From the IMG/VR virus record IMGVR_UViG_3300020419_001132: a DNA stretch of 64,000 bases, one strand, 5' to 3'. The DNA comes from a virus (taxonomy: Duplodnaviria; Caudoviricetes). Below are positions 2,906 to 34,284 of the stretch, in pieces. The position numbers were made by a program, and so were the translations under genes. The notes beneath the pieces are model-generated. The model searched no databases, was not told where the DNA came from, and worked only from the letters and a program-made list of their open reading frames with translations. Positions within the stretch are counted from its first letter, which is position 1. Each line of letters begins with the position of its first letter.

Positions 2906-2924
2906 TTAAATCTCCAGCTATACA

Positions 2925-2932
2925 TATTTATT
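2925..2932 (-). promoter_or_regulatory. T4-type late promoter-like motif AATAAATA
   Basis: TAAATA core ~20 nt upstream of the 2905 start, ahead of a GGAG RBS. Confidence 0.55.
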
Positions 2933-2974
2933 CAAAAAAGTTTTCTACTATGATAATATCAAATAAGTAGTAGT

Positions 2975-7146: not shown

Positions 7147-7415
7147 ATGCTTATTCCTTTTGATTTTTCTATAGCATCTATAATCTCATCTGAACGTACA
7201 CATTTTACTGATTGTATTTTTCCTGGTGGCATACCTTTATAGTCACTCAAAAGGTTTGCAACTAATCCGGGGTAGACGGCTGGATCGGTTATATCAGCTT
7301 GACACAATACTTCCTCTTGGTAAAAAGGTTGAGCAAATACATACATATTTTTTGTACCGTCTGCATTTAGACCGGAAAAAGTAACAACAATCATGAATAC
7401 TATCTCTTTTATCAT
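7143..7415 (-). CDS. Hypothetical protein with hydrophobic N-terminus (90 aa)
   Basis: ATGA-coupled to neighbours; signal/TM-like MIKEIVFMIVVTFSG; two Cys. Confidence 0.65.
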   Translation of the reverse strand: MIKEIVFMIVVTFSGLNADGTKNMYVFAQPFYQEEVLCQADITDPAVYPGLVANLLSDYKGMPPGKIQSVKCVRSDEIIDAIEKSKGISI

Positions 7416-8540: not shown

Positions 8541-8541
8541 A

Positions 8542-15777: not shown

Positions 15778-15804
15778 ATACAATCATTCCTTTAAATGCT
15801 CGTA

Positions 15805-16093: not shown

Positions 16094-16593
16094 TAGCTAT
16101 CTCCCTTATTGTAGCCCCACCAAGCAGGACATCTTTTCCATGCTGGCATCTGTTCGCTTGAAATTTTCATTGGCTGGTCTACACTAGGTTCTCTAATTTC
16201 ATCATATGCTCTTTGCTCTTCAGGTGATAAGTTTTCTCCAGTTGTCTTATCTGGTGCAGGTATGCTTGTTTTAATTAAATCAATATGATTAACCCAAGAA
16301 CCGCCGGCCATATTATTTGCTTTTATATCGTGATATAACATATCTAATTGTGCGCCTACGTCTCCGTATGCAACTTTTCTTTGCATTTCTCTATCAGGAT
16401 GTGGTTCGTCTCTTTCAACCCAAACCATTTCTCCTTTAGATGGACTATACTCTAGTGTCCACATTAATGTGATGTTGTCGGGTGCATCTACCCATTGAAA
16501 CGTTGCATCAGGGCCATTGTAGATCTCAAAATCATCTCCTGGATCTTCAATTTGCATCACATACCCTGCCGCACCTACGATTGCTTTTTTCAT
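16093..16593 (-). CDS. Tail-fibre assembly chaperone-like protein
   Basis: RKVAYGDVGAQLDMLYHD...WVNHIDLIKTSIP resembles the QLDML helical module of phage fibre chaperones; lies directly after the Gly-rich genes. Confidence 0.6.
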   Translation of the reverse strand: MKKAIVGAAGYVMQIEDPGDDFEIYNGPDATFQWVDAPDNITLMWTLEYSPSKGEMVWVERDEPHPDREMQRKVAYGDVGAQLDMLYHDIKANNMAGGSWVNHIDLIKTSIPAPDKTTGENLSPEEQRAYDEIREPSVDQPMKISSEQMPAWKRCPAWWGYNKGDS

Positions 16594-17450
16594 TATCTAT
16601 ACTCCGTAATTACGATCATGCCGACTCGTCCATCAGCACCTCTAAAGCCACTAAAGTACCCACCAGTACCTCCACTGCCTGGAGCGGCGTGACTTTGATG
16701 ATTGTGTGAAAAGTTTCCGCCCTGTGGGTGTCCTGCGGCGGTATTACCACCCCAATATGAATGCCCACCTGGACCGTGACTTTGGTGATGACTACCACCT
16801 CCTCCACAGTGGATGTTTAAGTTTCCCCCGGAACCGCTACCACTAACGCCTCCTGAGTGTTGATTATTTCTGTTACCACCATATCCTCCGCCTGCTGATA
16901 GATAAGGTCCAAATGATGAACTTGACCCATTACCAGCACCGCCGGAATAGTAAGTACCACCACCTCCACCACCTATCGTACAATAGACGTTTGATATACT
17001 TGTAACATTAATAATTTCTTCTGAATAGCCTCCAGCACCACCTGACTCTCCGTGACCTCCGCCACCTCCTCCACCGCCCATTACCTGAACGTGAATATAT
17101 CTGGTTCCTGATTGTCTGTACCAAGTAGTACTACCTGTGTATACAGCCTGTCTTACTATTCCAAAATTGTTTACCCATTCTAGTCCATTTCCGCTAGAAT
17201 TTGTTCTTAACATATTACCACTACTTCCAATAGAAGTAATGCCAGATCCACCTTTGTTTGTTGCTAGTGTACCTGAGGTTGTATCTGTGTTTAGACCAAC
17301 TGCTCCGGTTCCTATTTTACCAGATGTAACCTGATTGTTTCCAATTTTTCCTGTTTTTACTTCTGAATTTCCAATGTCAGCTGTTTTGACTTGATCATTA
17401 ATCACTGCTGTAGCTGTTAGTTTTTTTAATGTTTGATAATTAAATGCCAT
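16593..17450 (-). CDS. Glycine-rich fibre/adhesin protein, copy 3 of 3
   Basis: MAFNYQTLKK start, VxTxKI-type repeats, GGGGGGGGHGESGG, RNNQHSGG, AAGHPQGGNFSHNHQ. Confidence 0.8.
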   Translation of the reverse strand: MAFNYQTLKKLTATAVINDQVKTADIGNSEVKTGKIGNNQVTSGKIGTGAVGLNTDTTSGTLATNKGGSGITSIGSSGNMLRTNSSGNGLEWVNNFGIVRQAVYTGSTTWYRQSGTRYIHVQVMGGGGGGGGHGESGGAGGYSEEIINVTSISNVYCTIGGGGGGTYYSGGAGNGSSSSFGPYLSAGGGYGGNRNNQHSGGVSGSGSGGNLNIHCGGGGSHHQSHGPGGHSYWGGNTAAGHPQGGNFSHNHQSHAAPGSGGTGGYFSGFRGADGRVGMIVITEYR

Positions 17451-17460
17451 GTGTTAATCC

Positions 17461-18318
17461 TTAATAAAACTCATATACAACGATCATACCGTTTCTGCCA
17501 TTAGCACCTCGAAAGCCACTAAAATATCCACTAGTACCTCCACTGCCTGGTGCGGCATGTCCTTGATGATTGTGTGAAAAATTACCACCTTGTGGGTGTC
17601 CTGCGGCAGTATTACCACCCCAGTATGATGGACCTCCAACGGAAGATCTAGTGTGATGAGCTTGTCCGCCACCACCGTATACATTTAAGTTACCTCCTGA
17701 TCCGTTAACACTAAGTCCGCCTGAGTGTTGATTATTTCTATTTGCTCCATAACCGCCTCCACCTGACAAATAAGGGCCAAATGATGATGATGATCCATTG
17801 CCTGCGGCACCGGAATAATATGTTCCTCCTCCACCGCCACCAATTGTAATAGATACACTACTAATTCCTGTAACATCTAAAACTTCTTCTGCATATCCAC
17901 CGCCACCGCCGGATTCTCCGTGGCCACCGCCACCTCCTCCTCCGCCTACAACGCAGACTTTTACATAACGTACTCCACTTGGTCTACTCCAAGTTGAACT
18001 ACCTGTATAAACACTCATGCTTCTAATTCCGTATGGACGATATTGTAATGCTGATCCGCCATCGTTATATCCTAAAGCATAATAAGCATTACTAGGATTA
18101 CTACTTAAACCTGTACCTCCAGAACTAACAGGTAATGTTCCTGTTACTATCGATCCGGTCATACTAACAGAACCTGTAGCAAGTTTATCAGAAGTTACTG
18201 CGCCATCATTAATATCTGCAGTTTGTACAGTTAAGTTAGCAAGATCTGCTTCTTTAATTTCTCCGTCGATAATTGACTCTGATTTAACTTTTTTTAATGT
18301 TTGATAATTAAATGCCAT
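17461..18318 (-). CDS. Glycine-rich fibre/adhesin protein, copy 2 of 3
   Basis: Same architecture and motifs, 285 aa. Confidence 0.8.
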   Translation of the reverse strand: MAFNYQTLKKVKSESIIDGEIKEADLANLTVQTADINDGAVTSDKLATGSVSMTGSIVTGTLPVSSGGTGLSSNPSNAYYALGYNDGGSALQYRPYGIRSMSVYTGSSTWSRPSGVRYVKVCVVGGGGGGGGHGESGGGGGYAEEVLDVTGISSVSITIGGGGGGTYYSGAAGNGSSSSFGPYLSGGGGYGANRNNQHSGGLSVNGSGGNLNVYGGGGQAHHTRSSVGGPSYWGGNTAAGHPQGGNFSHNHQGHAAPGSGGTSGYFSGFRGANGRNGMIVVYEFY

Positions 18319-18323
18319 TTTTT

Positions 18324-19175
18324 CTACCTAAAATTTGTAACAACTACAACTCCGTGCCTACCATTAGCTCCTCTAAAGCCACTGTGATAACCGCTTGTGC
18401 CACCACTTCCGTATGCAGAATGGTTTTGGTGATTGTGTGCAAAGTTTCCACCCTGTGGGTGTCCTGCCGCTGTGTTTCCACCGAAAAAGCCCATTCCTCC
18501 GTAACCTGTTCTGTTGTGATGATTTCCACCACCGCCTGTATGAATATTTAGCGATCCACCTGATCCTGAACCACTTACTCCTCCTGAGTGTTGGTTATTT
18601 CTGTTTGCACCGTATCCTAAACTAGCTGATAGATAAGGACCAAATGAACTTGCACCTCCATTACCTCCAGCACTTGAATAATATGTGCCTCCACCTCCAC
18701 CACCTATTGTGACAGATACACTTGATATACTTGAAACATCAATATACTCTTCTGAATATCCTCCAGCACCACCAGATTCTCCGTGACCGCTTCCGCCGCC
18801 ACCTCCACCGCTTACTTGTACCTTAATCCATTTGACTCCACTAGGCCTATTCCAAGTACCATTGCTAGTGTAAACATTCATACTATACAATCCATGTCCT
18901 TGTGAAGTCCAACTACTACCATTTGAAACAATTACACCAGCATTAAATCCTCCTGGATTAGTAGTTCCTGTGCCACCTTTGTTTGTTGGCAATGTTCCTG
19001 AAACCTTATTACTTGCTAGATCAACTGAGCCTGTACCCAATTTATCGCTACTTACTGCATCTGTATTAATCTTATTACTAGTTACTCCTAGTGCTTCTAT
19101 CTGAGTGCCTGTAATAGTTCCATCAACAAATGATTCTGATTTGTATTTTTTTAAAGTTTCGTAGTTAAAAGCCAT
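18324..19175 (-). CDS. Glycine-rich fibre/adhesin protein, copy 1 of 3
   Basis: Same architecture and motifs, 283 aa. Confidence 0.8.
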   Translation of the reverse strand: MAFNYETLKKYKSESFVDGTITGTQIEALGVTSNKINTDAVSSDKLGTGSVDLASNKVSGTLPTNKGGTGTTNPGGFNAGVIVSNGSSWTSQGHGLYSMNVYTSNGTWNRPSGVKWIKVQVSGGGGGGSGHGESGGAGGYSEEYIDVSSISSVSVTIGGGGGGTYYSSAGGNGGASSFGPYLSASLGYGANRNNQHSGGVSGSGSGGSLNIHTGGGGNHHNRTGYGGMGFFGGNTAAGHPQGGNFAHNHQNHSAYGSGGTSGYHSGFRGANGRHGVVVVTNFR

Positions 19176-19993: not shown

Positions 19994-22900
19994 TTATCTT
20001 AACATATAGTTAATTGCTAGTGGTAATCCTACGACCCCACCTTTAAAGTTAACTGTAGCATTGATATTTATCGTAGTACCAGTCACGGTGGTAATCTGAT
20101 TGGTACCAATAAAAATATCTCCAGCTGTTACAGTATTAACGTTTAGTGACGCACCACCGCCACCAATTTGTGCCTCTATGTATGCCTTAACTGCACGTTG
20201 GGTTGGAACAACACTATCTGAATTTGCAGTCATAAACTGATCTGTACTAAATTCTGAAACTGCCGCAGAGTTACCGCCTAGTGTAACCTCTCCCAATGAA
20301 AGTTCTTGTAATCCTGCAATATTAAATGCGTCTGCATTCAATGTAGCAACACCTGTTGCTTGTTCAACGTTAAACAAGTCACCAACTCTAAAGTTACCAT
20401 CTTGGTCAGTTGATGTAAAGAACACCCTACCGCCGTTATTTTGATTAGTTTCTTGAGCTGGTATCGGTGCTATTGCAGGTGTTCCAGGATAATTTGTAGA
20501 TGTAAATCCTCCTGTACCAATATCTAAGAAATCGTGTCCTGTTAAACGTACTTGAGAATATCTAATTCTCATTGTAGTTGGATCACCATGTGGTGGTGAT
20601 AAAGCATGTGTCATGTTAGGCGAAACATTAAGGAATGTTGTATAACTTCCGTCCTGTGTACCAAGGAACGTAACTGTGTTTACTAGTTTGTATACCTGAT
20701 TAGGTATGCTATCAAACACAACATTTGACCCTGGTGTTGGTCTTTCAGTAAGTTGTCTAACTGCAACAAATGTGCCTGTCTGGAAGAAGTCTGCAAAACC
20801 ATTGTTTCCAGTGCTTGACAATTCAGCTGATGCCGCCGCGTATCCACTACCTCTATTAGTAAATGTTGGATTACCTAAACATCCACTTCCTAATCTTACT
20901 GTAGTTTGAACATCAAATACATTGTTAGGATCTGTTATTGTCATTGTAGGTGCACCACTAACATATCCACAACCTGGCTCAACTAATCTTACTTCAAAAA
21001 TCTTTTCACTTGCAACTCCAGCTCTACCAATTGCTGTAACACCTGTTTGCATCCTTGCAATATGTTGTTCTGTTGTACCATTACCTTTGGCCATCCAGTA
21101 ACCTACTTGATTTGGATTACCAAAACAAACTGCCTGGTAACCTGTAATAGCACCATCTGGGTCGCCTATTGCAGTTCTAGTTGTCCAATTTGCTCCGTCT
21201 TCAGTTACTGAAACTGAATTGTATGCTTCTAAATCTGATGCGTTTCCTGGTCCAACTGCCATAAACAGTCCTTGTCCGTACTTAATGTGTGTATACTGTA
21301 CTATACTAGAACCGTCTACGCTTGGAGCTGTAGCATCAATCCAAGTAGCTCCTCTATCCTGACTATATGCCGCTTTGTTGTCGTCACTAGCAATAGTAAT
21401 AAATCTGTTCTTACCAAATGCAACACCCACCCAAGCACTTGTACCTGGTAGTGTAGTAGTTGTCCATGTATCTGCATTATTAAATGCCGCATATGCCGCA
21501 GTAGTTGTTCCGCCTCTAACAGCAACAACTCTTTCTGCCCCATATGCTATGCCTGTATAACCAGTTGTAGCTAATGCATTACTATTCTGTACCCATGTTG
21601 CACCACCGTCACCTGATTCAAAAACATGTCTTGAGCCTTCAAATATTAAGAAGAACTTGTTTTTACCAAAACATATATGTGGTTCTGAATTGTAAGGTCC
21701 GCCTGGAAGATCATTTGCGTTAGTCCAAGTAGTATTGTCTGCACTATACCATACAGGTTTAGTGCTAACACTCGCTTGTGATACAATTACTGTTGAACTT
21801 GTTCTTTCTGTTGACGATCCGTCATTTAATACTCCTGTGCAAAGTTTAACAGATCCTGTAGGTGCTGTTCCTGGTAATGTAGCTGAGGTCCAGTTTGCAC
21901 CAAAGTCTACACTCTTACGAACATCTGCTGATGCACTTGCAACTTCTAGGAATGCTCCTGAAAGGCCTAAGCCATCTGAGTCAACAACAGTTATTGCACC
22001 AGTCGTACTGTTTATACTTGTAACAGTTAGTGTCAAATCATTTGCTGGTGTTGCACCGCCTAAACTTGTTCCTGGTATAACTATTGTGTCGCCCCGTGCA
22101 TATGATGTTCCACCGTTCTGTACTGTTACAACATATTTGCTTGTGTTCCTATAAACTGTAAATCTAGAACTAGTACCAGCTGTTGTTGTCTCTGTACCTT
22201 GAATATTACTATAGATATTTGCTGTTTCACAATACTCCATGTCAGTAGTATTTCTATTTGCACCTAAAACTTGTGCAACTGAGGTATGTGGTGGAGCACT
22301 AAACTCTATGCAAGGTTCTATCAAGTAAATTGATGTTGCATTAGGAGCAACAATAGGTGTTCCTGGATTTAGATGTTCCCAACCAGAGGTTCCGTCATTT
22401 TTAAGTACCGCGGCCAATTTCGCACCACTGTTGTATGTGCTAATTTTACCATACTGTCCTACAGCTTGTCCGCCTGTAATAACAACTCTCATTCCTACAT
22501 ATGCACTATCTGATCTACCATCAGTTGCCGCAATAGTAATTGCAGATGTTGTTCCTGTTTGTGCAGTATTTGTTGTTACAATGTATCCTTTACCGCCTAA
22601 ATCTCCACTGGAATCATCAAGATCTAAAATTCTAATTCTATTAACAGCATTGTCTCTAAACTCGTCTGCTTCAGTTTTTGCTCCAGTACCAGAACCAAAT
22701 ATGCCAATAGCAGATTCTGTGTAATTATTACCTGCATGATCGAATTCAATTGTTATTGGTTGATTACCATCTGTTTCTACTTTTGTTGCAGTAGCTTTGA
22801 ATTGGAATTTGTTATCAACAATTCCTGTTACAGCTATTTCAGTGTTGTCTACACCTTCTGCAACAGATCCAAATGTTCCGTATGAGTTGTTACCATTTGT

Positions 22901-25900
22901 TGCACGTATTCTACCGCCTGCTTCAGCTAAGTAACCAATGTGTGAATAGTAAGTAAACACAGACACAAGCTCAGCTCTACCATTGTTAGTAATCCAAGCA
23001 CCTATACCATCTGATATAACCTGTGTAAAGTCGTTTGACACGATTGAATCGTTACCACCGTTGTGTAATGCACCATCAATCTTTTGACCTATTGCCGCAT
23101 TACCAAATGTAGTTACGTTTTGTACATACGGTGATCTTTCAGTAATCCATACTCTCTTATCATCTGGTCCCCAACCTGGATCAAGTGATGCATAAGCACC
23201 TGCACTAACTCTGCTAGTACCATATGCGTTTGCTTGTAATAAATCACCATTTAAATCTTTAAGTGATTGTAATCTTAATCCTGTTGCATTTCTCAAGTAG
23301 TACATATCTTCTTCTTGAGATCCCATTACAGCATTAATATAATACCTTGCTGAAAATTTTGATCTGTAGTTTGCTGGTAATACAAGTTCAACATCATGTG
23401 AGAAAGAGCATGTATATGGTCTAGTATAATCTTTAGGATAAACTAGATCCCATTTCATTCCATCTACAATTTCTCTAACGTCTCTTGAACATGCAGTTGT
23501 AAATTGATGATCATATATTGGTTGTACAGTACAATTTGATTGGCTTTCAAGAATTGTTTTCTTAGAACCGCCAGGTGTTTCTGAAATTGTAAACTCGTTA
23601 TCATTTACAACTTCTTTAACATAATAAGTTGTTCCTGCAACTAATCCTAAATCTGATACAGAAGTACTAGAGTCTCCTTCGTCTACAAATTTAACTGCAA
23701 GATGTTCTTCTAACCAAGTTGCGTTTTGAGTCATTACAGAGTTTGCAGTAGAACTTACAAAAGTATGGGTATATCTTTGCCCAACTGGTGATGATCCAAC
23801 GTCAACTGTAATTGTATATGTTGTTGCGGCTCTAACTCTTAATAGTGTATCATGGGCCATATCCGAAACTCTTGGATATGGATGATTACTACTATGACCG
23901 TCGAACGAGCAAGTAAACACTAAGCTATCTTTTTTAATTTTTACATGATCGTTAGTTGTAAGGTTGTGTGCTGTAGGAAATGTTAATACCATTATACCTG
24001 TAGTAGCATTGTAAGTTACTGCATTAGGAGTAAAGTTTCTACCAACACTAATCTGTGAACTTGTAACGTTTGTAGATTCAATGGTAGACTTAAAGTGAGT
24101 ATCTACATAACTAGTTGCTTCTTCAACTAAAAACTCTTTGTTAAGTTCGAGCATTCTTTGAGCCGCAAAATTATTAAGTTCTGAAATTTGTTTATTGTTT
24201 GCTTCGTTACCTGCTCCAAAAATTATGTCTGATATCCATTCCCAAGTAAAGTTTATTCCTGAGACCGCAGTTGCATTAAAGTTAACTTTTTTCAGTGCCG
24301 CTTTTCTTTCAAACTCTAAAGCCGCTAATGAAAAATCTTTTTGACTTCCTATAGTTTTTTTAGATGCAGTATTTCGTAGGTATGCATATGCCGCAAACAT
24401 ACTGGCCATATTTGTACCTAACATGAAATCATATCTACACGCATCCACTATGTATTTTAAATCTCTAGTACACTTTGCATGATCGTATACTAGCTTTTGG
24501 TATGTATCACTTATGTATTGTACAACACCTCTAATAGTTTCTTCTAAATCACTTTCTATGTTAGCAAATGCAGTTTGATATTCAGAATCTGCCCAAGTAA
24601 TTGCAGGGTATGTAATAGGTTTAGCTTGTAATACTAATATGCTATCTGCTACACCACTCACAAATGAGTGTGCTGATGTATTTTGAGATTGGCCAACATT
24701 AACAGTAATTGTTGTCGCTGTTTCTGCTGTAATTCTTAATCTTTTCTTATGTGCTGGATCTGTAGATCTTGGATAATCATGATTTGTTGCATTACCGTCC
24801 ATTGCACAAGTAAATCTAATTGCATTATCAGCAATTCTTACTTCGCCGCCTACTTCTAAATTATGAGCACCAATAGTTACAACCATGTCACCTGTGAAGG
24901 GATTATAAGTTGCGCCTGATGGTGTTCTAGTTTGTAAAACATCAAGTGTAAGATCAACACCTGCTTGTACCGAAGCCGCTTCAGTTGCTGTAGCCGCCGC
25001 TCCGTAAGTTACCTGTGTTTCACTGTTTCCTGTTTGTTTTGTGATTGAACTTTCTTGTACAATGTCGTCTAAGATAGACTTCATGTGTGTATATGCACCT
25101 CTTACAACGGCTGTTCCGCTTCCGTCTACACCGTATGTAAGAATTAAGTCGTCATCGATAAAACTATCTGCAATTCTTGACGCCGCTTGATTACCACCAT
25201 ATAGCACGTCATATGCTAACGCATCAATTAGATATTCTGTATCTCTAGTACACTTTGCAACAGTATGAGAATGACTTCCATGATTGACTGCTACCCAAGC
25301 ATTAACGTCTGCTACTATAAATGCTTTATTTCCTATTAACAAGTTTTTAGCATCAACTTTGTCCTGTACAACACCTGCAGGACTCGGTAATGTCAATGCA
25401 TCAGCTACACCGTCTCCTGGTTTAGTATTTGATAATACACCAAGTTCAATAATATTTGTTACTTCGTTAAATGCTGTAGTAATTCTACTTGAAGCATTAC
25501 TTGATCCAGTTGCACTGGATCCATCAGTTGTGACAGAAACTTTTAACAAATCTCTTGCTTTGTTTATTCCAGCAATAGTTTGTGTCATCTGTGTAGATTG
25601 CGTATATTGTGCGTTTCCTCTTTTATAAGAAATACCTGTATATACAGCATTAAAATTTGTACCCATTGCTACGTCATATTTTAAATCTTTAACAATTTTT
25701 CTAATATCTCTTCTGCAATAGTAGCTTTTATGTCTGTATGTTCCGAAGTTTTCACTAACAAAGTCTATAGCATCTTCAGCAATTTCTACAACAGATTCCC
25801 TAAGACTGTTAGAAGCATCTATTAACGCAGAATTTACTCCTGATGTATCAGGATATGTAATACTTGCGGCTGTTGGACCGTTATTAATAATATCAATTAT

Positions 25901-28690
25901 ACCTTGCATCAAAGTAGCAATAGTACTTGCTACGCCTGATGTACTGTTATTTGATCCTGTCTTTTGAGTGTATAAAGAGTTTAACACAGGACTAAGTGTA
26001 AAGTTTTGTCCTACTGTTTGTAAAATTGTTTTTAAGTAGCCATATGCACCTAGTGTAGCAGTTTTTTCTGTTAAGTTTTGTGATAAAACATTTGTACCAC
26101 TCCAGTATGCTAAACCTGCATTTTGCATTTGCCAGTTTCCGCCATAAGTTAAATCATATGCCAATGCATCTAGTATGTAACAAACATCTCTTCTACATTT
26201 TGTTTTACTATATTTTATTGTTGTATAATTTGCAGAAATATATGAAATAATTTCTTCTTGTAAAAATTCTTTGTTTAACAAGATATTATTTCTAGCATAT
26301 CCTTTAGCTGGAGTTGACATATCATACGCAGGAGTGTAAATGGCCTCAACCATTGTTTGAACACCTTTGTCTATGTTACGTTTTATAACTCTACCTAATA
26401 ATTCTGCAGATTTCTTTTCCTTATGATCTCCGATAGGCCATGTTACATCTTGTGTGTTTGTCATTGTAGCTTTTGTTCCGGTTATGCCTGCTCCAGAAAC
26501 TACATGTCCTACAACTTCTGATAATCTATCAATTGCTTTTAAACTCCATTTTGCATCAACTTTTTCAGTTGCAATAGAGTCTGCTTTTGTTTGTGGACTT
26601 ACACTTACTGCACGAAGTTCGTCACCCATTACACAGCAAAGTGCTGGTACTCTAATAGGTAATACTTCTTTATAAGTTCCAGTTGCTACTCTAACAAGTG
26701 TATTCTTTTCGATTCTTGCTGGAACATTTGTATTAACACCTGCTGTAATAGCATCTGTAATAATTTTAATATTAGCATCTATACCAAGTGCAGTAGAAGT
26801 TCCTTCTGCTATTAATGAAGATTGCTTATATTGTACTACTATAGCTGTTGAATTATCACCGTTCGTTGTTTGATAATTTGTTGAAGGATCTGTTTGTGCT
26901 AAAACATTACCTATAACTGTTAATCCATAATTAATAGCGGCAACCGTTTCTTCTTTTTGTCCTTGCAAATAAAAGTTAGGAGCATTGTCAGTATATTCTA
27001 ACGCTGACTCTCTACTTTTAACATTTCCGCCGTGACACAGATCGTATATAATTGCATCAACAATATACCCCATGTCTCTTTCACATTTTGTTTGTTCGTA
27101 TTTGTAAGAACCTGTAAATGGAGAAATAGTATTAGCTACTTGATATTCTACCCATTCTACAATTTCTCTTTGTATAAAAATTCTGTTTAATTCTAAAAGT
27201 CTTCTTGCTTCTGGATACTTTGTGCCATTTTCAATCTGCATACAAGCAAATCTAATCGTTTTGAACGGAGATTCTATTGTTGTACCTCTAACTGGAGCTT
27301 TTGCATCAACTCCGTTTGGTGAAACATAATACACATCTGGATTTTCTCCAAAATATGTCCATTCTGGAACTCCACTATTTGAAACTCTAAGCACCTGTCC
27401 GTCAGTACCAATAGGCAATCTAGTTGGTCCAGATCCACCATAGTAAACCAAGTCACCTGTAGTTGTAAGTACACTTGTTTCAGATCCTGTAACTAACAAG
27501 TTCCAAAATGTTCCTGTACTATCTAAATCTGGTTTAGAGTTTTGTGCTCCACCGCCTGCACCAGTTCTAGTTTCAGTTGAGTAATCATCGCCTTCTGATA
27601 CATGTGATTTTACACAAACATAAGCATTGGTGCCAAATCTTATAACATCGCCAATGACATAATAAGCATCGTCCATCCACTGGCCTCTAAATTTAAATCC
27701 GTAATTTAGTAAGTCCCAATATGTTGTCCAGTCACCTGCATATCCTGGTTCTTTGTTATTACTATCAGCTTTTGCCATGTATGTATGGCCACCTACAGTA
27801 ACAACATCACCTGTTAAATAATCTTGTGAGGAAGAGTCATCACCCCATATTCCTCTAAAATTCATTCCTTTTGAAAATACTTGCCAGTCTGCTGTACTTG
27901 ATGTACACTTAACATCTGTATTTTGTCTAAGTGCAATATACTGATAGCCGCCCCATCTGACTATATCACCTTTTTGGTAGATTCCTCCAGGCGCCCAAAC
28001 ATTTTCAAATTGAATGCCTTCTACAAACTCGCTCCAATTTGCACTATCCCCAGCAAATGTGCTTGAAGTATGTGCTGATGTTGCAATGTATAGTCCACCA
28101 CCGTATTTTACAACGTCATTTACTTTATATCTTATACCTGTTGCCCAAGCAGTTTTATATTCTACTCCAGGATTAAATGAATCCCATTTTGCTTGGTCAG
28201 CTTCTAATCCGCTTGATGCTGAAGCATTTGATGTATGGTGTGTATTACAAACATAAGTTTGTCCTCCATATCTGACTAAATCGTTTGCTTTATATCTTGT
28301 ATTAGTCGACCAAGTGCTTTTCCAATCAAGCCCTGCGCCAAATAAATCCCAATTAGCTATGTCTGCTTCTAATCCAGCAGTTGCAGAAGAGTTTGAAGTG
28401 TGTACTGCTTTAGCTATATAAAGATTTGCACCGTATTTTACAATATCATTATAAACATAAGAAGTACTTATTGCCCAATCGCCCTTCCATGATTGACCAT
28501 CACTTACTAGATTCCATTTTGTTGGTGAAACATCTAAGTCTGTAAAAAAGTCTGCCGCCGCTGTGTGGCCTGTTACACAAATGTATACCCTGCCTCCAAA
28601 GCGTATAACGTCATCTCTATAATAAGATGTGCCAGTTACCCACGCATCTTTCCAAACAAATCTAATTCTACCTAATTTAAATTCTGCCAT
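19994..28690 (-). CDS. Giant virion fibre/baseplate-appendage protein (2898 aa)
   Basis: N-terminal WxxxTxYxxxDxVxYGGxxY (CBM5/12-like) repeats; FYVSPNGVD...RSPYVQNVTT beta-helix core; six C-x-R-D helical repeats; BNR/Asp-box (SxDxGxxW) repeats; C-terminal GHDFLDIG...TSTDQDGNFRVG. Confidence 0.85.
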   Translation of the reverse strand: MAEFKLGRIRFVWKDAWVTGTSYYRDDVIRFGGRVYICVTGHTAAADFFTDLDVSPTKWNLVSDGQSWKGDWAISTSYVYNDIVKYGANLYIAKAVHTSNSSATAGLEADIANWDLFGAGLDWKSTWSTNTRYKANDLVRYGGQTYVCNTHHTSNASASSGLEADQAKWDSFNPGVEYKTAWATGIRYKVNDVVKYGGGLYIATSAHTSSTFAGDSANWSEFVEGIQFENVWAPGGIYQKGDIVRWGGYQYIALRQNTDVKCTSSTADWQVFSKGMNFRGIWGDDSSSQDYLTGDVVTVGGHTYMAKADSNNKEPGYAGDWTTYWDLLNYGFKFRGQWMDDAYYVIGDVIRFGTNAYVCVKSHVSEGDDYSTETRTGAGGGAQNSKPDLDSTGTFWNLLVTGSETSVLTTTGDLVYYGGSGPTRLPIGTDGQVLRVSNSGVPEWTYFGENPDVYYVSPNGVDAKAPVRGTTIESPFKTIRFACMQIENGTKYPEARRLLELNRIFIQREIVEWVEYQVANTISPFTGSYKYEQTKCERDMGYIVDAIIYDLCHGGNVKSRESALEYTDNAPNFYLQGQKEETVAAINYGLTVIGNVLAQTDPSTNYQTTNGDNSTAIVVQYKQSSLIAEGTSTALGIDANIKIITDAITAGVNTNVPARIEKNTLVRVATGTYKEVLPIRVPALCCVMGDELRAVSVSPQTKADSIATEKVDAKWSLKAIDRLSEVVGHVVSGAGITGTKATMTNTQDVTWPIGDHKEKKSAELLGRVIKRNIDKGVQTMVEAIYTPAYDMSTPAKGYARNNILLNKEFLQEEIISYISANYTTIKYSKTKCRRDVCYILDALAYDLTYGGNWQMQNAGLAYWSGTNVLSQNLTEKTATLGAYGYLKTILQTVGQNFTLSPVLNSLYTQKTGSNNSTSGVASTIATLMQGIIDIINNGPTAASITYPDTSGVNSALIDASNSLRESVVEIAEDAIDFVSENFGTYRHKSYYCRRDIRKIVKDLKYDVAMGTNFNAVYTGISYKRGNAQYTQSTQMTQTIAGINKARDLLKVSVTTDGSSATGSSNASSRITTAFNEVTNIIELGVLSNTKPGDGVADALTLPSPAGVVQDKVDAKNLLIGNKAFIVADVNAWVAVNHGSHSHTVAKCTRDTEYLIDALAYDVLYGGNQAASRIADSFIDDDLILTYGVDGSGTAVVRGAYTHMKSILDDIVQESSITKQTGNSETQVTYGAAATATEAASVQAGVDLTLDVLQTRTPSGATYNPFTGDMVVTIGAHNLEVGGEVRIADNAIRFTCAMDGNATNHDYPRSTDPAHKKRLRITAETATTITVNVGQSQNTSAHSFVSGVADSILVLQAKPITYPAITWADSEYQTAFANIESDLEETIRGVVQYISDTYQKLVYDHAKCTRDLKYIVDACRYDFMLGTNMASMFAAYAYLRNTASKKTIGSQKDFSLAALEFERKAALKKVNFNATAVSGINFTWEWISDIIFGAGNEANNKQISELNNFAAQRMLELNKEFLVEEATSYVDTHFKSTIESTNVTSSQISVGRNFTPNAVTYNATTGIMVLTFPTAHNLTTNDHVKIKKDSLVFTCSFDGHSSNHPYPRVSDMAHDTLLRVRAATTYTITVDVGSSPVGQRYTHTFVSSTANSVMTQNATWLEEHLAVKFVDEGDSSTSVSDLGLVAGTTYYVKEVVNDNEFTISETPGGSKKTILESQSNCTVQPIYDHQFTTACSRDVREIVDGMKWDLVYPKDYTRPYTCSFSHDVELVLPANYRSKFSARYYINAVMGSQEEDMYYLRNATGLRLQSLKDLNGDLLQANAYGTSRVSAGAYASLDPGWGPDDKRVWITERSPYVQNVTTFGNAAIGQKIDGALHNGGNDSIVSNDFTQVISDGIGAWITNNGRAELVSVFTYYSHIGYLAEAGGRIRATNGNNSYGTFGSVAEGVDNTEIAVTGIVDNKFQFKATATKVETDGNQPITIEFDHAGNNYTESAIGIFGSGTGAKTEADEFRDNAVNRIRILDLDDSSGDLGGKGYIVTTNTAQTGTTSAITIAATDGRSDSAYVGMRVVITGGQAVGQYGKISTYNSGAKLAAVLKNDGTSGWEHLNPGTPIVAPNATSIYLIEPCIEFSAPPHTSVAQVLGANRNTTDMEYCETANIYSNIQGTETTTAGTSSRFTVYRNTSKYVVTVQNGGTSYARGDTIVIPGTSLGGATPANDLTLTVTSINSTTGAITVVDSDGLGLSGAFLEVASASADVRKSVDFGANWTSATLPGTAPTGSVKLCTGVLNDGSSTERTSSTVIVSQASVSTKPVWYSADNTTWTNANDLPGGPYNSEPHICFGKNKFFLIFEGSRHVFESGDGGATWVQNSNALATTGYTGIAYGAERVVAVRGGTTTAAYAAFNNADTWTTTTLPGTSAWVGVAFGKNRFITIASDDNKAAYSQDRGATWIDATAPSVDGSSIVQYTHIKYGQGLFMAVGPGNASDLEAYNSVSVTEDGANWTTRTAIGDPDGAITGYQAVCFGNPNQVGYWMAKGNGTTEQHIARMQTGVTAIGRAGVASEKIFEVRLVEPGCGYVSGAPTMTITDPNNVFDVQTTVRLGSGCLGNPTFTNRGSGYAAASAELSSTGNNGFADFFQTGTFVAVRQLTERPTPGSNVVFDSIPNQVYKLVNTVTFLGTQDGSYTTFLNVSPNMTHALSPPHGDPTTMRIRYSQVRLTGHDFLDIGTGGFTSTNYPGTPAIAPIPAQETNQNNGGRVFFTSTDQDGNFRVGDLFNVEQATGVATLNADAFNIAGLQELSLGEVTLGGNSAAVSEFSTDQFMTANSDSVVPTQRAVKAYIEAQIGGGGASLNVNTVTAGDIFIGTNQITTVTGTTININATVNFKGGVVGLPLAINYMLR

Positions 28691-28737: not shown

Positions 28738-31700
28738 TTAATCTTCCTTCAAAAATAGTCGCATTGCGAGTGGCATTCCAGTAACTCCTGCATATTGTCC
28801 TGCAAAATTTGTAGTTTTCGGAAATTGTATTTCAAACGCTGTTCCCGGCACAGTTCCACTTACGAGTCCGCCATCTCCAGTATGTTGAATAATATCATTT
28901 TCACCGCCTATTTTAACTAAACCTGCTGTTAAGTCATTAGTTTCTATTTCTGATCCACCTTCTGACAATCGTGTTGCTAAGAAAGTTACGACTGCTTTTT
29001 GCGTAGGCACAATGTTATTAGAATCTTCAATAAACAATGGGTCTGTAGAAAATTCTCTAACTACAGTACCACTACCGCCTAATCTAACGCCGCCGAGTGC
29101 TAATTCAGAAAGCCCGTCTAGGTCAAAGAAATCAGCACTAATTGTTACGATGCCAGTTCCTTGTTCAACACTGAACAATTCACCAGCCCTAAAGTTACCA
29201 TCTTGGTCTGTTGATGTATAAAACACCCTTCCACCATCGTCTTCATAAGTTTCATTTTCTGGATAAACATCATATACATTTCCAGCAACATACAGTTCAG
29301 GATAATTTGTTTGTGTAAAGTTACCACTGCCTATGTCAAGAAGATCATGTCCAGAAATTCTACACTGACTATATAGTTCTCTAATTGAAACTGCTGTTCC
29401 GTGAGCTAAATTATCTGAATTTTCCAACTTTGGTGATATCCTAAATAATACTCTTTTAGTTCCATTACCAGACCCGTCATCTCCAAGCTCGGTGACTTTC
29501 ACTGCTGTAAACGCTCTTAGATCTGTTAAATCTTCTGTCGTATCAGTATTCATTACTCCGGTAATAGATATTTGTGCTCCAGGTCCTGGATAAGCTCCTG
29601 ATAATCCTACAACAGTTAAGTCAGTTGAGTTAGATGGTATCTTATCTGCATATCCGTCACCTGTTAAAGTAACAGTTGTTGTACTAGTTCTATAACCTAT
29701 ACCTCTGTTTATAAAGGTTGGTTGTGCAAGTACGCCATCACCTATTCTCATCTGTACCTGAGCGTCTGTTGTTCCTTTGTTGTCAAAAATAGTTAAAGTT
29801 GGCGCACTAGTGTATCCTGAACCAGGATCCCAAATCTTTAAGAAACCAATTACTCCAGTTGATATATTTGCTATAACTTTTGCTTTTGCTCCTTGTCCTA
29901 CTGCTAATGCAGTATTGCCGCCTTTTGCTAATACAAGCCAATTTTTATTATACTTGCCATATGCACAAGAACTAAACTTATTCGAAAATGTTAAATCACG
30001 TTTGGTCCATGTATATCCATCAGGTGATGATGCCGCTATGGTAGTTGGTCCTGTTGTTGCATCTCCTGCTATAATTCTATTTCCAGTATCACACACAGCA
30101 AAAAATACCCCGTTTCCGTATCTTACTTTGTTCCAATTCATGTGTGTAGAATCATCTAGGTTTGGCATGTTAGATGTCTGCCATGTTTCCGTTACCGGAT
30201 CTCCAATGCAGTATATTGCTTGACCAGTATTTTTTGATACTGCTACAAATCTTCCATTACCAAAAGTTAAGTTACACCAGTCATATGCTCCGCCTGGCGT
30301 TGGAAGTTTATCTTCTGTCACTGTCCAAGTAATTCCATCACTAGATGTTGCAATAGCTCTGTCACTTCCAGATAATGCAACCCATTTTCCGTAACCATAA
30401 CTTACACCTTGCCACTGTTTGGAAGATGATGATAAGTCATCTGATGTACTTGCTGGAATACTGGTTTGAGCCCATGTAGTTCCGTTAGCACTATAAAATA
30501 CTCTATTATCATCTTCGCACACTATGATAAATTGTCCATTGGCATAATGTATATCTTTTAGTGGTGCCGAAGAAGGTAGTGTTGTCACAGCCCATGTTTT
30601 TCCTGTTCGACTATAATTTATAACATCAGTAACAGTATTTGATATCGCAACAAATGTTGTTCCGCCGTGTGCTATAGTCTTCCATGTTTGCGTTGATGCA
30701 GTAAATATTTCACTCCAGGATGTTCCGTCATCGGAGTATGCACTATAATTACCTTCAGCTACTGCTAACCATCTTCCTGCAAATCCAGATCCTTGTACAG
30801 TTACAGTAACAATACTGTTTGTACTATCATCAGAAACTGATGCAACTCTTATTATACAATCGTTTGTAGGACTAGTTCCACCTAATGCTGTTCCTGCAAT
30901 AGTAGTAGTATCACCAACTGCATATCCAATTCCAGTACTCTGTAAAACCGCTGTGTATGTAGCACCAGTTTTAATTATTCTAATAACAGCCGGAGCAGGA
31001 GTTGTATCTATAGTTGTTCCAGTACCTGTACTCATCACATTATTATCATATTGTTCTCTTGTCTCTCCCCATGCCGCGTCAACCCATTCCTTAGGTGATG
31101 TAGGCATTGAATTAGGTAATGTTCTAGTATTAACTGTAAACGGTGGTTCAGATACTGTTATCCTTGGTTGAATTCTATATTGTGTATTTGTTTGTAATGA
31201 TGCTGAAATTTCAAATCCAGGAATAATATGATCCCATCCTGCAGTACCGTCTGTGTGTTTATATATTTGTGCTACTTTTGTACTATCGTTGTATGCTTGT
31301 ATATAACCATATTGTCCTGTTCCTACACCAGAGGTTAAAACTATAAGTTGTCCTATGTAATCTGCTGTTACAGCTGAATCATTACTTGCAAGTGTAATAC
31401 TTGTTGTATTTCCTGTTTGTGCATTGTTACCTACATTTGTATAGTTTGCACCACCTATGTTAGCACTATCGTCTGCTTGTATTAATCTTGCTTCGAATAA
31501 TGAGTCGTCTCTAATATCGTCAAATGATGTGTTTACAAAATTTCCAGAACCAACTACATTGATTGATGCAGAGGTATAATTTTCTCCACAATGTCTATAT
31601 TCAAATGCAAGTATTTTATCTGTAACTTCTCCAGCAAACGCAAATGCAACTTCGGCTTCGTTGTTTCTATTATCAACAGTTGCAGTTTTAGGAGTTTCTG

Positions 31701-34284
31701 TAGAATCAATTCCTAATGCTACTGATCCATAATTTCCGTATGAGTTGTTACCGTTAGTAGCTCTTATCTTTCCGCCTGCTTCAGCTAAGTACCCCATGTG
31801 TGCATAATACGTAAACACAGAAACAAGTTCTGCTCTACCATTGTTAGTTATATGAGCTCCTAGGCCATCTGATATAACCTGTGTAAAGTCGTTTGATACC
31901 ATTGACTTGTTACCACCGTTATGCAAAGCACCGTCAATTTTTTGTCCTGTACATGCTGTACCGATTGTTGTTACACCCTGTATATAGGGTGATCTTGTAG
32001 CAATCCAAGTTCTGTCATCTGCAGGACCCCATCCTGGATCTAAACTACAGAATGATCCGCCTGTTGGCCTTTGGAGAATTAATGATGTTCCTGTTGGAGA
32101 TAGTACTCCTGACAATCCTTCTATAGTACAGTTTCTCAATCCTGTAATGTCTCTTAAGTAAAACATATCTTCTAGTTGTGAACCATTTGTTTGGTTTACA
32201 TAATATCTAGCAGACTGTACAGTTGCATAATTTCCAGGGTAGCGTAAGTCGTATCTAATTCCTCTAATAAATTGATTTACATCAGCTTCTATTCTTGCAT
32301 CTGTAAACACATACTCTGGAGAAGTGCTTTTAATGTAAGCTACTGCTTCTGCTTGTAAAAATTTTGTATTAACTCTTAGTATCTCACTTGCTCTAATTCT
32401 AGCAATTTCACTGGTTAATGTATTTGTTCCTGTTATTGATGGCTGTGTTGATCCACTTAAAATTTTATAACTAAGATACTCTGTAATATCTGCTACTAAA
32501 CTTCCAAATATAGCTGTTAAGTCACCTGTACTTGCAGATTGTGTTTTATCTTGTGCTACTGTATTACCTGTAGTTACTGTTATATCTTGATTTAAAAACA
32601 AATCGTTTATAATAGTTGTAAATCTAGTTAAGTAAGAAAATGTTGTTGAAGTATCTCCTGTATATTCAGTTACAGGACTATTTGCAACAACCGTCACAGA
32701 ACGCAGTTCGTCGCCCATTACCACCGTGTATCTAGGTACAACAATAGGACAAGTTTCTATATACCTACCTGTAGATACGTTAACCTTACATGGTCCTGTA
32801 ATATTATCTTCAACGTATTGACATGCAAACCTAATAGTTTTGAAAGGATATCTCATATCAATACCTCTTACTATTCCGCCAGTTGTGCTATAGTCGTCGA
32901 CTCCTGTTGGAGATACATATACTACTGTAACTTCTGTTGTAAATAAATCTCTATAGTATAAATCTGGATCAGTAGTCAATTCATTTCTTATAGATAACAC
33001 TTGATTTGTTGTTCCTATTGGAACATTGGTAGGACCCATGCTACTTCCATCAACCAACTTATCATATGTTAAGATGTCTCCAGGTGCGTTTAGACCAAAA
33101 TTTCCTGTAGTCATTGCTAGTATAGACCACCATGGATATCCGCTACCGTTTCCAGGAAAATTAATTGTTGATGAAGTATGCGGTTGTGTACACTCGTACA
33201 ATATACCATAATATGTTACAACTTCACCCTTTGAGTAACTTATAGAATTATAATTCCAGTAATTTGCAAATTTATCTCCTGGAACTATAAGTTCCCATTT
33301 AGTTGTATCTGTATAATCAGTTAAAACAGCATCTGTACTATCGTTTTCTCGCTTGATTGTAACTAGAGCTTTATATAATTCACCGCCTCTTCTTACAAGG
33401 TCACCTGGTGCATAATCGCTTTCAATATTCCAATCACCTCTAAAATTATAAGAATAAAGCATTTTTATAAAATACACTACACTATCGAACCCTGTATTAG
33501 TTGGTTCTATTCCTCTAATAGGATTAGTTACATAGTATAGATCTCCACCGTACCTTACTATATCACCTGTTGCATAATCTGTTGCTCCGCTATATTCTTG
33601 TACATCGTTGAATCCAGGTAATTCTATGTCGTATAAATTTTGGTCAAAATTTGCAGTTGTAATATGTGTTGTCTTGACTCTAAAGATGGAACCGCCAAAT
33701 TTGACTAAATCATTTTTTCTGTAAGTTGTAGCTGTTGTCCAGTTACCAGCAAAATAAATTCCATCATGAAATACTTGCCAACTTGCAATATCGTCTTCTA
33801 AGTATGTTTGCGAAGTATGGGCTGTAATACACTTGTAAAGTATTCCATTATATTTTACAATAGCACCTGGGCCGTATCCTATAGCAGTTGTCCAGTCTGT
33901 TTGAAACTCAGTTCCTTGTGCAATAATAGTCCAGTCAGTTGCGTTTGCTTGAAAAGTTGTAGATAAATGCCCTAGGTTACAAAAGTATACAGTACCATCA
34001 AAGGTTACAATATCGCCTTCTTGATACTGTGTAGCTGTGACCCATGATCCAATCCATCTTCTGCCGTCTGTCTGTAGAACCCATTTGGGCTGTGGTACCG
34101 GAGGACTACTACCAGGAACTGTAGCTTTTAAATCAGTGTTGAAGTCTGCACTAGATGTATGTGTAATTAAACACACATAAGTTTTACCACCTACGTTAAC
34201 AACATCATCACGATTATAAGCATTACCGTTTGACCAAACGCCTTTCCAGTTATACTTAAATCGTTCTAGTTTAAACTCTGACAT
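28738..34284 (-). CDS. Giant virion fibre protein (1848 aa), paralog of 19994..28690
   Basis: MSEFKLERF vs MAEFKLGRI; same repeats and core (SLDPGWGPADDRTWI, GGNKSMVSNDFTQVISDG, TSTDQDGNFRAG). Confidence 0.85.
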   Translation of the reverse strand: MSEFKLERFKYNWKGVWSNGNAYNRDDVVNVGGKTYVCLITHTSSADFNTDLKATVPGSSPPVPQPKWVLQTDGRRWIGSWVTATQYQEGDIVTFDGTVYFCNLGHLSTTFQANATDWTIIAQGTEFQTDWTTAIGYGPGAIVKYNGILYKCITAHTSQTYLEDDIASWQVFHDGIYFAGNWTTATTYRKNDLVKFGGSIFRVKTTHITTANFDQNLYDIELPGFNDVQEYSGATDYATGDIVRYGGDLYYVTNPIRGIEPTNTGFDSVVYFIKMLYSYNFRGDWNIESDYAPGDLVRRGGELYKALVTIKRENDSTDAVLTDYTDTTKWELIVPGDKFANYWNYNSISYSKGEVVTYYGILYECTQPHTSSTINFPGNGSGYPWWSILAMTTGNFGLNAPGDILTYDKLVDGSSMGPTNVPIGTTNQVLSIRNELTTDPDLYYRDLFTTEVTVVYVSPTGVDDYSTTGGIVRGIDMRYPFKTIRFACQYVEDNITGPCKVNVSTGRYIETCPIVVPRYTVVMGDELRSVTVVANSPVTEYTGDTSTTFSYLTRFTTIINDLFLNQDITVTTGNTVAQDKTQSASTGDLTAIFGSLVADITEYLSYKILSGSTQPSITGTNTLTSEIARIRASEILRVNTKFLQAEAVAYIKSTSPEYVFTDARIEADVNQFIRGIRYDLRYPGNYATVQSARYYVNQTNGSQLEDMFYLRDITGLRNCTIEGLSGVLSPTGTSLILQRPTGGSFCSLDPGWGPADDRTWIATRSPYIQGVTTIGTACTGQKIDGALHNGGNKSMVSNDFTQVISDGLGAHITNNGRAELVSVFTYYAHMGYLAEAGGKIRATNGNNSYGNYGSVALGIDSTETPKTATVDNRNNEAEVAFAFAGEVTDKILAFEYRHCGENYTSASINVVGSGNFVNTSFDDIRDDSLFEARLIQADDSANIGGANYTNVGNNAQTGNTTSITLASNDSAVTADYIGQLIVLTSGVGTGQYGYIQAYNDSTKVAQIYKHTDGTAGWDHIIPGFEISASLQTNTQYRIQPRITVSEPPFTVNTRTLPNSMPTSPKEWVDAAWGETREQYDNNVMSTGTGTTIDTTPAPAVIRIIKTGATYTAVLQSTGIGYAVGDTTTIAGTALGGTSPTNDCIIRVASVSDDSTNSIVTVTVQGSGFAGRWLAVAEGNYSAYSDDGTSWSEIFTASTQTWKTIAHGGTTFVAISNTVTDVINYSRTGKTWAVTTLPSSAPLKDIHYANGQFIIVCEDDNRVFYSANGTTWAQTSIPASTSDDLSSSSKQWQGVSYGYGKWVALSGSDRAIATSSDGITWTVTEDKLPTPGGAYDWCNLTFGNGRFVAVSKNTGQAIYCIGDPVTETWQTSNMPNLDDSTHMNWNKVRYGNGVFFAVCDTGNRIIAGDATTGPTTIAASSPDGYTWTKRDLTFSNKFSSCAYGKYNKNWLVLAKGGNTALAVGQGAKAKVIANISTGVIGFLKIWDPGSGYTSAPTLTIFDNKGTTDAQVQMRIGDGVLAQPTFINRGIGYRTSTTTVTLTGDGYADKIPSNSTDLTVVGLSGAYPGPGAQISITGVMNTDTTEDLTDLRAFTAVKVTELGDDGSGNGTKRVLFRISPKLENSDNLAHGTAVSIRELYSQCRISGHDLLDIGSGNFTQTNYPELYVAGNVYDVYPENETYEDDGGRVFYTSTDQDGNFRAGELFSVEQGTGIVTISADFFDLDGLSELALGGVRLGGSGTVVREFSTDPLFIEDSNNIVPTQKAVVTFLATRLSEGGSEIETNDLTAGLVKIGGENDIIQHTGDGGLVSGTVPGTAFEIQFPKTTNFAGQYAGVTGMPLAMRLFLKED

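Follow-up and report, generated by a model that had tools for sequence, protein, structure and literature searches.

Phycobiliprotein-type globin repeats with a conserved candidate bilin site in giant fibre-like proteins of marine phages

In phycobiliproteins a cysteine is joined by a thioether to ring A of the bilin, while an aspartate and an arginine hold the pyrrole nitrogens and a propionate. ApcE attaches its bilin without a lyase, through a cysteine at a different position. Outside photosynthesis, the phycobiliprotein paralogs BBAG-1 and BBAG-3 described by Rockwell, Martin and Lagarias in 2023 occur in genomes with heme oxygenase and bilin reductase genes; CXRD is the bilin-binding motif, and BBAG-1/3 bearing it attach bilins without a lyase (PMC10151467). 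In phages, the role of cpeT has been called unresolved (PMC3037559), and the hemO plus pcyA/pcyX cassettes of phages thought to infect heterotrophs have been called enigmatic (PMC11480375). The nearest statement found to what is reported here is a suggestion that phage-made phycocyanobilin (PCB) might interact with a BBAG-type globin (PMC11480375). Here we analyse a stretch of 64,000 nucleotides from the virus record IMGVR_UViG_3300020419_001132 of IMG/VR, referred to as the window, and in it a tail-fibre-like protein of 2898 amino acids (aa). A preliminary description of the window had noticed six C-x-R-D helical repeats in this protein and read them as possible globin-like, bilin-binding domains on the virion. 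The fold, the homology and the conservation of the site are supported by our analysis; pigment attachment and any light-related function are plausible hypotheses.

The motif C-x-R-D occurs exactly six times in the 2898-aa protein, at Cys536, Cys832, Cys992, Cys1147, Cys1407 and Cys1734, and all six Cys codons lie where the preliminary description had placed them. From the composition of the protein, 0.06 occurrences are expected by chance; 20,000 shuffles gave two at most, and the Poisson probability of six or more is 6e-11. The motifs sit in a true internal repeat of five full units of ~150 aa and one partial unit. The full units show 19–36% mutual identity and have C, R, D, Y-D, G and N as common invariant residues, and the helix L-x-x-N-K-x-F-I-Q-x-E, noted earlier as preceding most motifs, belongs to the family consensus. 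The sixth unit is regarded as a partial copy because only the motif-bearing helix matches. The Cys-less copy claimed for the neighbouring 1848-aa paralog proved to be real, and is the counterpart of the partial sixth copy, lying just ahead of the beta-helix. The two open reading frames (ORFs) and their domains are as follows, the repeats being scored with a hidden Markov model (HMM) of the repeat and its independent E-value (i-E).

19994–28690, minus strand: ORF of the 2898-aa tail-fibre-like virion protein, matching PHROG tail-fibre/virion-structural families 9851, 5342, 701 and 4527.
27491–28690, minus strand: N-terminal array of CBM_5_12-like carbohydrate-binding repeats, about aa 1–400 (approximate bounds; Pfam PF02839, seven stretches, E 4.3e-25).
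26756–27220, minus strand: phycobiliprotein-like repeat 1, aa 491–645, Cys536, inserted at the start of a beta-helix-like region (repeat HMM i-E 1.1e-51).
25871–26335, minus strand: phycobiliprotein-like repeat 2, aa 786–940, Cys832, the unit modelled by AlphaFold (repeat HMM, model confidence of 92.4, fold searches).
25397–25855, minus strand: phycobiliprotein-like repeat 3, aa 946–1098, Cys992 (repeat HMM i-E 4.1e-51).
24938–25390, minus strand: phycobiliprotein-like repeat 4, aa 1101–1251, Cys1147 (repeat HMM).
24086–24610, minus strand: phycobiliprotein-like repeat 5, aa 1361–1535, Cys1407 (repeat HMM i-E 1e-51).
23438–23500, minus strand: partial sixth copy, aa 1731–1751, Cys1734, the helix-E motif only, running into the beta-helix domain (repeat HMM i-E 0.0032, profile positions 44–64 only).
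28738–34284, minus strand: ORF of the 1848-aa paralog, with the same N-terminal CBM repeats and the same beta-helix (Pfam, PHROG tail-fibre/virion-structural matches).
32185–32412, minus strand: degenerate Cys-less half-repeat in the 1848-aa paralog, aa 625–700, with RIEAD replacing C-x-R-D (repeat HMM i-E 1.8e-11, profile positions 7–82).

The array also holds two copies of phrog_1276, an ~85-aa non-helical insert domain, at aa 1258–1336 and ~1560–1650 of the 2898-aa protein (window ~23741–24919); one copy is located between repeats 4 and 5 and the other within the split sixth unit.

An AlphaFold (AF2) model of repeat 2 was built from a 145-sequence alignment of single repeats. The model consists of seven helices, with a predicted local distance difference test (pLDDT) of 92.4 and a predicted template modelling score (pTM) of 0.88. 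In a Foldseek search of the PDB the top 48 matches were all phycobiliproteins, with template modelling (TM) scores of 0.6–0.7 over ~151 columns and E-values of 0.014 or weaker. VIA-align of the model with phycobiliproteins resulted in a Z of 15.8 and a root mean square deviation (rmsd) of 2.5–2.6 Å for 141 of 158 residues. Exhaustive structure alignment against 48,161 representative chains placed phycobiliproteins and the bilin-binding domain of ApcE at ranks 1–8 (Z 12.5–14.5), followed by sensor globins and photocobilins (Z 10–12) and then haemoglobins (Z 6–8); ApcE-type matches are 4xxi_A (Z 13.5) and 7eyd, 7sc7 and 9wg7 (Z 12.6–13.2). The ranking agrees with how the bilin-binding globins are related in the published tree (PMC10151467). 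A fold search of AFDB clusters with the repeat model returned weak, mixed globin matches only. Model and three fold searches together give the repeat the globin-type all-helical fold, with helices A, B, E, F', F, G and H. A single-sequence AlphaFold model of aa 780–1260 reached a pLDDT of 34.6 and was discarded.

Homology to phycobiliproteins is also detectable by sequence profile. Among 33 matches of the repeat profile to PDB sequences, 29 are phycobiliproteins (best E 0.026), and the alignment puts C-x-R-D on Cys84-x-Arg86-Asp87 of phycocyanin alpha, which fits the earlier suggestion that the motif may mark a bilin site. With hhalign against 32 phycobiliproteins from three cyanobacterial genomes, a probability of 94% and a P of 1.4e-7 were obtained over 101 columns, Cys on Cys, so that HMMER and hhalign both align the Cys of the repeat with the bilin-attachment Cys82/84. 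Pfam family PF00502 is matched by 26 of the 145 single repeats (best E 1.8e-5) and any other family by at most two; a precomputed PF00502 match is present on about 50 of 120 listed homologs. A phmmer search with aa 480–1800 against PDB sequences gave a spurious antibody match only, the signal appearing only with a profile. An ordinary helical repeat that contains C-x-R-D by coincidence might be suspected from the marginal E-values, which are 0.026 at best for PDB sequences and 0.014 or weaker for Foldseek. Such a coincidence is nevertheless refuted for practical purposes by the Poisson and hhalign probabilities given above, by phycobiliproteins coming top in three independent structure searches and by PF00502 being the sole recurrent Pfam family. 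The X-Y N-terminal hairpin of antenna subunits is not present in the repeat: structural alignments begin at phycobiliprotein residue 16–33, the model has 9 residues ahead of helix A, and the unit is ~150 aa long compared with 160–184 aa in phycobiliproteins. The repeats are a phycobiliprotein-type globin core, members of the bilin-binding globin superfamily and not antenna subunits.

A search of 1.84 billion proteins with the five-unit profile yielded 1354 cluster representatives at E ≤ 0.001 and 518 at E ≤ 1e-30. Most of these proteins are 2000–6000 aa long, with up to 36 matched stretches per protein. All 332 matching records of cultured phages are marine cyanophages or 'Marine' phage records; carriers include S-WAM2, P-HM1, S-SSM6b, P-SSM7, S-PM2 and Syn1, whose giant proteins go under the names tail protein, short tail fibre, gp7 baseplate wedge initiator or virion structural protein. 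Counted over 1634 repeats of 152 proteins, the Cys is kept in 94%, the Arg in 95% and the Asp in 98%, and C-x-R-D is intact in 91.8% of 1602 repeats, at a typical inter-repeat identity of ~20–35%. A non-globin bundle and unconserved C, R and D, two of the outcomes that the preliminary description named as counting against its proposal, were both looked at; the fold is a globin and the three residues are kept at 94–98% in homologs.

The conserved positions were compared between repeats with Cys and the 78 repeats without it.

Arg49: kept in 97.5% with Cys and 52.6% without Cys.
Asp50: kept in 100% with Cys and 67.9% without Cys.
Tyr77: kept in 99.6% with Cys and 69.2% without Cys.
Thr93: kept in 90.9% with Cys and 39.7% without Cys.
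Asp61: kept in 99.6% with Cys and 98.7% without Cys.
Asn67: kept in 80.7% with Cys and 79.5% without Cys.

The remaining conserved positions show mild effects only upon loss of the Cys. Because Arg, Asp, Tyr77 and Thr93 are lost together with the Cys, the pattern is that of a joint ligand site; judged by this coupled loss, Cys, Arg, Asp, Tyr and Thr act as one functional unit, like ligand-site residues, and Asp61 and Asn67 look structural. A bilin is the obvious candidate ligand, since CXRD has been published as an attachment motif and BBAG-1/3 attach bilins by themselves (PMC10151467). The same residues could instead form a polar network for folding or inter-repeat packing in a rigid helical fibre spacer that holds no ligand. 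Asp61 (99%), the most invariant residue of the family, fits such an apo module, being no phycobiliprotein feature and independent of the Cys, so that family-specific structural constraints do exist; the companion domains, CBM repeats and a beta-helix, are ordinary fibre parts, and the lack of a lyase in the jumbo-phage lineage and of coloured virions in the literature searched, both taken up below, would be expected of it. Packing alone can hardly explain, however, why a lone Cys is kept in 94% of ~1600 repeats that are only 20–35% identical, its commonest replacements, F, S and T, each being found in only ~1% of copies. In addition, wherever a CXRD-bearing member of the superfamily has been characterised, the motif binds bilin (PMC10151467), and an apo module predicts neither that C, R, D, Y and T should be lost together nor the co-occurrence with bilin genes and the cpeT synteny described in the following paragraphs. 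We therefore consider a ligand-free spacer possible but on the unlikely side.

The window carries T4-like phage genes for a gp20-type portal (52279–54030), a gp21-type protease and a gp23-type major capsid protein (47269–48450), and also encodes a baseplate protein and a Rad50/Mre11-like pair. Its major capsid protein is nearest to those of the jumbo phages Sinorhizobium Phosso (72%), Vibrio 2.275.O (71%) and Pseudomonas PA5oct (68%), and genes of the window are also present on a 190,639-bp Tara Oceans scaffold. A 117-kb IMG/VR record overlapping most of the window (G001) has a CheckV completeness of 33%. From this capsid kinship, the shared scaffold and the completeness of the record it follows that the source is a marine jumbo phage, as yet uncultured, with a genome of about 350 kb. 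A Megablast search of the region against cultured phages gave no match. PA5oct, Vibrio 2.275.O and Phosso, the cultured jumbo phages with the closest capsid proteins, have neither repeats nor any bilin gene.

A complete syntenic relative, G007 (363,943 bp, CheckV 100%), has a capsid protein 82% and a portal 68% identical to those of the window. It encodes 14 repeats over three giant proteins, and an overlapping pair of genes for a heme oxygenase and a ferredoxin-dependent bilin reductase, ~77–240 kb from the repeat proteins. The reductase has 376 relatives on viral contigs, and a heme oxygenase gene adjoins in 80 of 80 loci examined. All six contigs selected by the reductase and at least 30% complete carry repeats. 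At the genome level, heme oxygenase and reductase co-occur with repeats in G007, G027, G028, G029 and G008, the genes not being adjacent to the repeats. In G007 the cassette has phage genes for CsgG, CsgF and a FecR-like protein to one side of it, and genes for ClpS, Hsp20 and DnaK to the other (within 280001–300000: 2546–5852 and 8508–11263); in the 80 reductase loci ClpS and Hsp20 were seen in 74, CsgF in 39 and CsgG in 34. The curli secretion genes point to a Gram-negative and probably non-cyanobacterial host for G007. Two neighbours of the cassette were considered and set aside: a 369-aa gene beside the reductase, a possible lyase, is kept in only 7 of the 80 loci, and a conserved 100-aa protein is ClpS and not a ferredoxin.

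The window itself contains one gene of tetrapyrrole supply.

59356–60132, minus strand: porphobilinogen deaminase HemC, 258 aa (PF01379, E 3.7e-60).

The product of HemC, hydroxymethylbilane, is a heme precursor and no bilin chromophore. The presence of this gene, as claimed in the preliminary description, is confirmed; its use there as support for bilin binding is weak, since the enzyme can at most provide more heme for heme oxygenase to act on. Of the earlier reading as a whole, the bilin-binding-globin fold, homology and site are supported, and the HemC argument is weak. A role in heme supply is in keeping with other phage genes reported to feed tetrapyrrole synthesis, alaS among them (PMC11480375). 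Relatives of this HemC, 56–98% identical, are found on six IMG/VR viral contigs; the search for relatives in the genome contigs gave none. A window with HemC and no bilin genes could also suggest that the repeats hold heme or a porphyrin fed by HemC, or a metal bound through the Cys, the homology to bilin proteins being merely ancestral; other globins do bind heme, and sensor globins align to the model with Z 11–12. Against this, the consensus has no conserved histidine for heme, the set of Cys, Arg, Asp, Tyr and Thr suits bilin contacts, with Arg being a poor metal ligand, and relatives carry heme oxygenase and bilin reductase, which turn heme into bilins. Another ligand is accordingly improbable.

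Repeats and bilin-related genes also meet in T4-like cyanomyoviruses. Sixteen of 19 such phages have repeats, and 13 of these 16 also have cpeT; the repeat-free P-SSM2, S-SM2 and S-SSM7 all lack cpeT, and cpeT without repeats was seen in 0 of 19. In S-PM2 and Syn1, cpeT precedes a giant 'short tail fiber' gene with repeats by 0.7–1.5 kb and has the same orientation, within a shared order of a small hypothetical gene, cpeT, a 2-oxoglutarate (2OG)-Fe(II) oxygenase gene, the giant gene and gp12; in S-WAM2 and S-RSM4 cpeT and the giant gene are within ~1–3 kb of each other. The giant fibre coding sequence of S-PM2 (NC_006820, 165928–177267) overlaps annotated tRNA features that share its locus tag, which looks like an annotation artefact.

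Our preferred explanation is that in the infected cell a bilin is covalently attached to most repeats, so that the assembled fibres carry bilins; we put the probability of this at roughly 55%. We base the proposal on the conservation of the motif, on site residues being lost together, and on bilin genes that share the distribution of the repeats and are syntenic with them. The phycobiliprotein globin core would be used as a tandem module in giant fibre-like virion proteins, and the bilin would be made from heme by a heme oxygenase and a ferredoxin-dependent bilin reductase of phage or host. The bilin would become attached without an enzyme, in the manner of BBAG-1/3 and ApcE, or with possible help from CpeT in cyanomyoviruses; in the jumbo lineage, where neither CpeT nor CpeS was found, it would therefore proceed autocatalytically or by another enzyme. 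Assembled fibres might bear tens to hundreds of chromophores.

Several observations weigh against bilin-bearing fibres. In the window's own protein, repeat 4 keeps C-x-R-D and has Phe and Val at the family Tyr77 and Thr93 positions, and a whole-protein Pfam scan returned CBM_5_12 alone, the repeats giving no PF00502 match at E ≤ 0.1. The preliminary description had proposed a search of the rest of the genome for genes that make and attach a bilin; the 33%-complete, 117-kb record proved negative for heme oxygenase, bilin reductase, phycobiliprotein lyases, PF00502 antenna genes and psbA. Neither CpeT nor CpeS lyase was detected in the jumbo-lineage records searched, and the CpeS-type lyase family PF09367 was absent from all 17 records searched. 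Three cyanophages have repeats and no CpeT above threshold, and P-SSM2 has heme oxygenase and bilin reductase yet no repeats, so that the repeats by themselves do not account for the bilin genes of phages. The co-distribution counts of repeats and bilin genes are no more than suggestive, coming from lineages that are not phylogenetically independent and in part from contigs selected on one trait. Finally, no report of coloured phage preparations was found in the literature.

Bilins on fibres could have a function in adsorption. P-HM1 and P-HM2 show no adsorption in the dark, P-SSM2 and P-SSP7 do adsorb in the dark, and the same source describes adsorption of S-PM2 as light-dependent and independent of host photosynthesis (PMC6628666). 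Repeats are present in P-HM1, P-HM2 and S-PM2 and in neither P-SSM2 nor P-SSP7, a comparison of five phages from at most three or four independent lineages that is only a lead. Light absorbed by fibre-bound bilins might change the conformation of the fibre and so permit host binding. That bilin-bearing fibre domains are the light sensor for light-dependent cyanophage adsorption, which would also explain why phages, those of non-photosynthetic hosts included, have heme oxygenase, bilin reductases, cpeT and HemC-type supply genes, is a speculative extension that we hold to be rather doubtful. Alternatively, the bilins might protect the particle from light or quench reactive oxygen around it.

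The reading of bilin-bearing fibres presupposes that the repeats are part of the particle. The 2898-aa protein matches PHROG 9851 with an E of 5.7e-182, and it and the 1848-aa paralog are placed between the capsid module and more fibre-like genes. This PHROG homology, the portal, protease, capsid and baseplate neighbours and the annotated homologs support a tail-fibre or virion structural status, and we infer that the protein is probably present in the particle of its own phage. Bilin-binding proteins serving mainly inside the cell as a sink or handler of bilins from heme or from degraded phycobilisomes, and not as a particle pigment, would agree with the small, less fibre-like single-domain versions of 292–376 aa that some phages have. 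Such single phycobiliprotein-like domains in short open frames are located on viral contigs at G008:C1:18661-19131, G009:C1:12288-12743 and G030:C1:8302-8748, and would be easier expression targets than the giant proteins. The large proteins, in contrast, match PHROG tail-fibre/virion-structural families and sit between baseplate and tail genes, virion structural protein is also what the homologs in P-SSM7 and S-SSM4 are called, and the N-terminal carbohydrate-binding repeats point to an exposed adhesin. A mainly intracellular role is thus improbable.

No description of phycobiliprotein-like domains in phage virions was found in the literature, nor any proposal of such repeats as a bilin acceptor for phage bilin genes. 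If the domains are chromophorylated, the phage particles would be pigmented, of which no description was found either. The repeats would provide a candidate acceptor for the cpeT of most marine cyanomyoviruses (PMC3037559), for the products of ho1, pebS and pcyA in Prochlorococcus phages, and for the hemO plus pcyA/pcyX cassettes of phages thought to infect heterotrophs (PMC11480375), and light-dependent adsorption would gain a molecular candidate that can be tested. The bilin-binding globins are extended by a large viral branch that had not been annotated before, with more than 1300 cluster representatives and up to 36 domains per protein, which bears on phycobiliprotein origins. Compact fluorescent tags that bind bilin, perhaps by attaching it themselves, might also be derived from the repeats.

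Other genes surround the giant fibre genes in the window. Directly downstream of the 2898-aa gene, at 16593–19175 (minus strand), three tandem paralogs of 283–285 aa probably encode more fibre or baseplate parts; the scanned paralog at 18324–19175 matches the Gly_rich_2 domain, which one of the three has in the scaffold gene calls. A giant structural protein of 1267 aa with a weak bactofilin-like stretch is encoded at 35002–38805 (minus strand), and another of 1618 aa with a weak FG-GAP match at 38951–43807 (minus strand); both are syntenic with G007 genes (35–49% identity) and have no phycobiliprotein-like repeats. The fibre module is flanked by three paralogs of a flavin-dependent tryptophan halogenase gene (PF04820, E 1e-95 to 4e-102), at 3583–5055 (plus strand), 5045–6550 (plus strand) and 14152–15783 (minus strand). 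prnA-like genes are known from cyanophages; three tryptophan halogenase copies beside structural genes are unusual. A cluster of 2OG-Fe(II) oxygenase and JmjC/cupin paralogs adjoins the giant fibre genes, at 2975–3586 (plus strand) and as ~200–260-aa ORFs at 7412–13136 (minus strand). Oxygenase genes near fibre genes here and in S-PM2/Syn1 suggest that enzymatic modification of fibre proteins may be conserved.

When comparing the repeats to the alpha and beta subunits of phycobiliproteins (phycocyanin, phycoerythrin and allophycocyanin; PF00502), the globin-type fold is the same (Z 14–16, rmsd ~2.5 Å over ~140 residues) and C-x-R-D is located at the same place, the start of helix E (Cys82/84-Arg-Asp), at an identity of only 12–18%. 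Since the X-Y N-terminal hairpin is missing, neither alpha-beta pairing nor assembly of an (alpha-beta)3 ring is expected for the repeats. Unlike phycobiliprotein subunits, they occur as 5 to 36 tandem copies in phage structural proteins of 2000–7000 aa and have the family-specific invariant residues Asp61, Tyr77 and Asn67; they are encoded in a phage structural module and not, as antenna subunits are, by a phototroph with linkers, lyases and phycobilisomes, and relatives of some carriers have Gram-negative curli secretion genes. ApcE resembles the fibre protein in having a phycobiliprotein-type domain inside a large multi-domain structural protein, and differs from it in having one such domain followed by linker repeats and in working inside the phycobilisome. 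BBAG-1/3 have CXRD in common with the repeats; the BBAGs, however, are single-domain soluble bacterial proteins clustered with the reductase gene, whereas the repeats are arranged in tandem in virion proteins and the cassette is distant. Because the antenna hairpin, the phycobilisome and the single-domain organization of the BBAGs are all absent, we assign the repeats to a viral branch of their own, new among the bilin-binding globins and set in a new structural context. The phage genes ho1/hemO, pebS, pcyA/pcyX and cpeT encode enzymes; what the repeats could add, in those same lineages, is a protein to accept the bilin. The giant fibre and baseplate proteins of T4-like cyanophages (T4-like gene clusters 734 and 507; PHROGs 9851, 5342 and 4527) are the same proteins or homologs: the 'short tail fiber protein' of S-PM2 and Syn1, the 'gp7 baseplate wedge initiator' of P-HM1 and the 'tail protein' of S-WAM2 all contain the repeat, under annotations that are silent on a phycobiliprotein-like domain or a pigment site.

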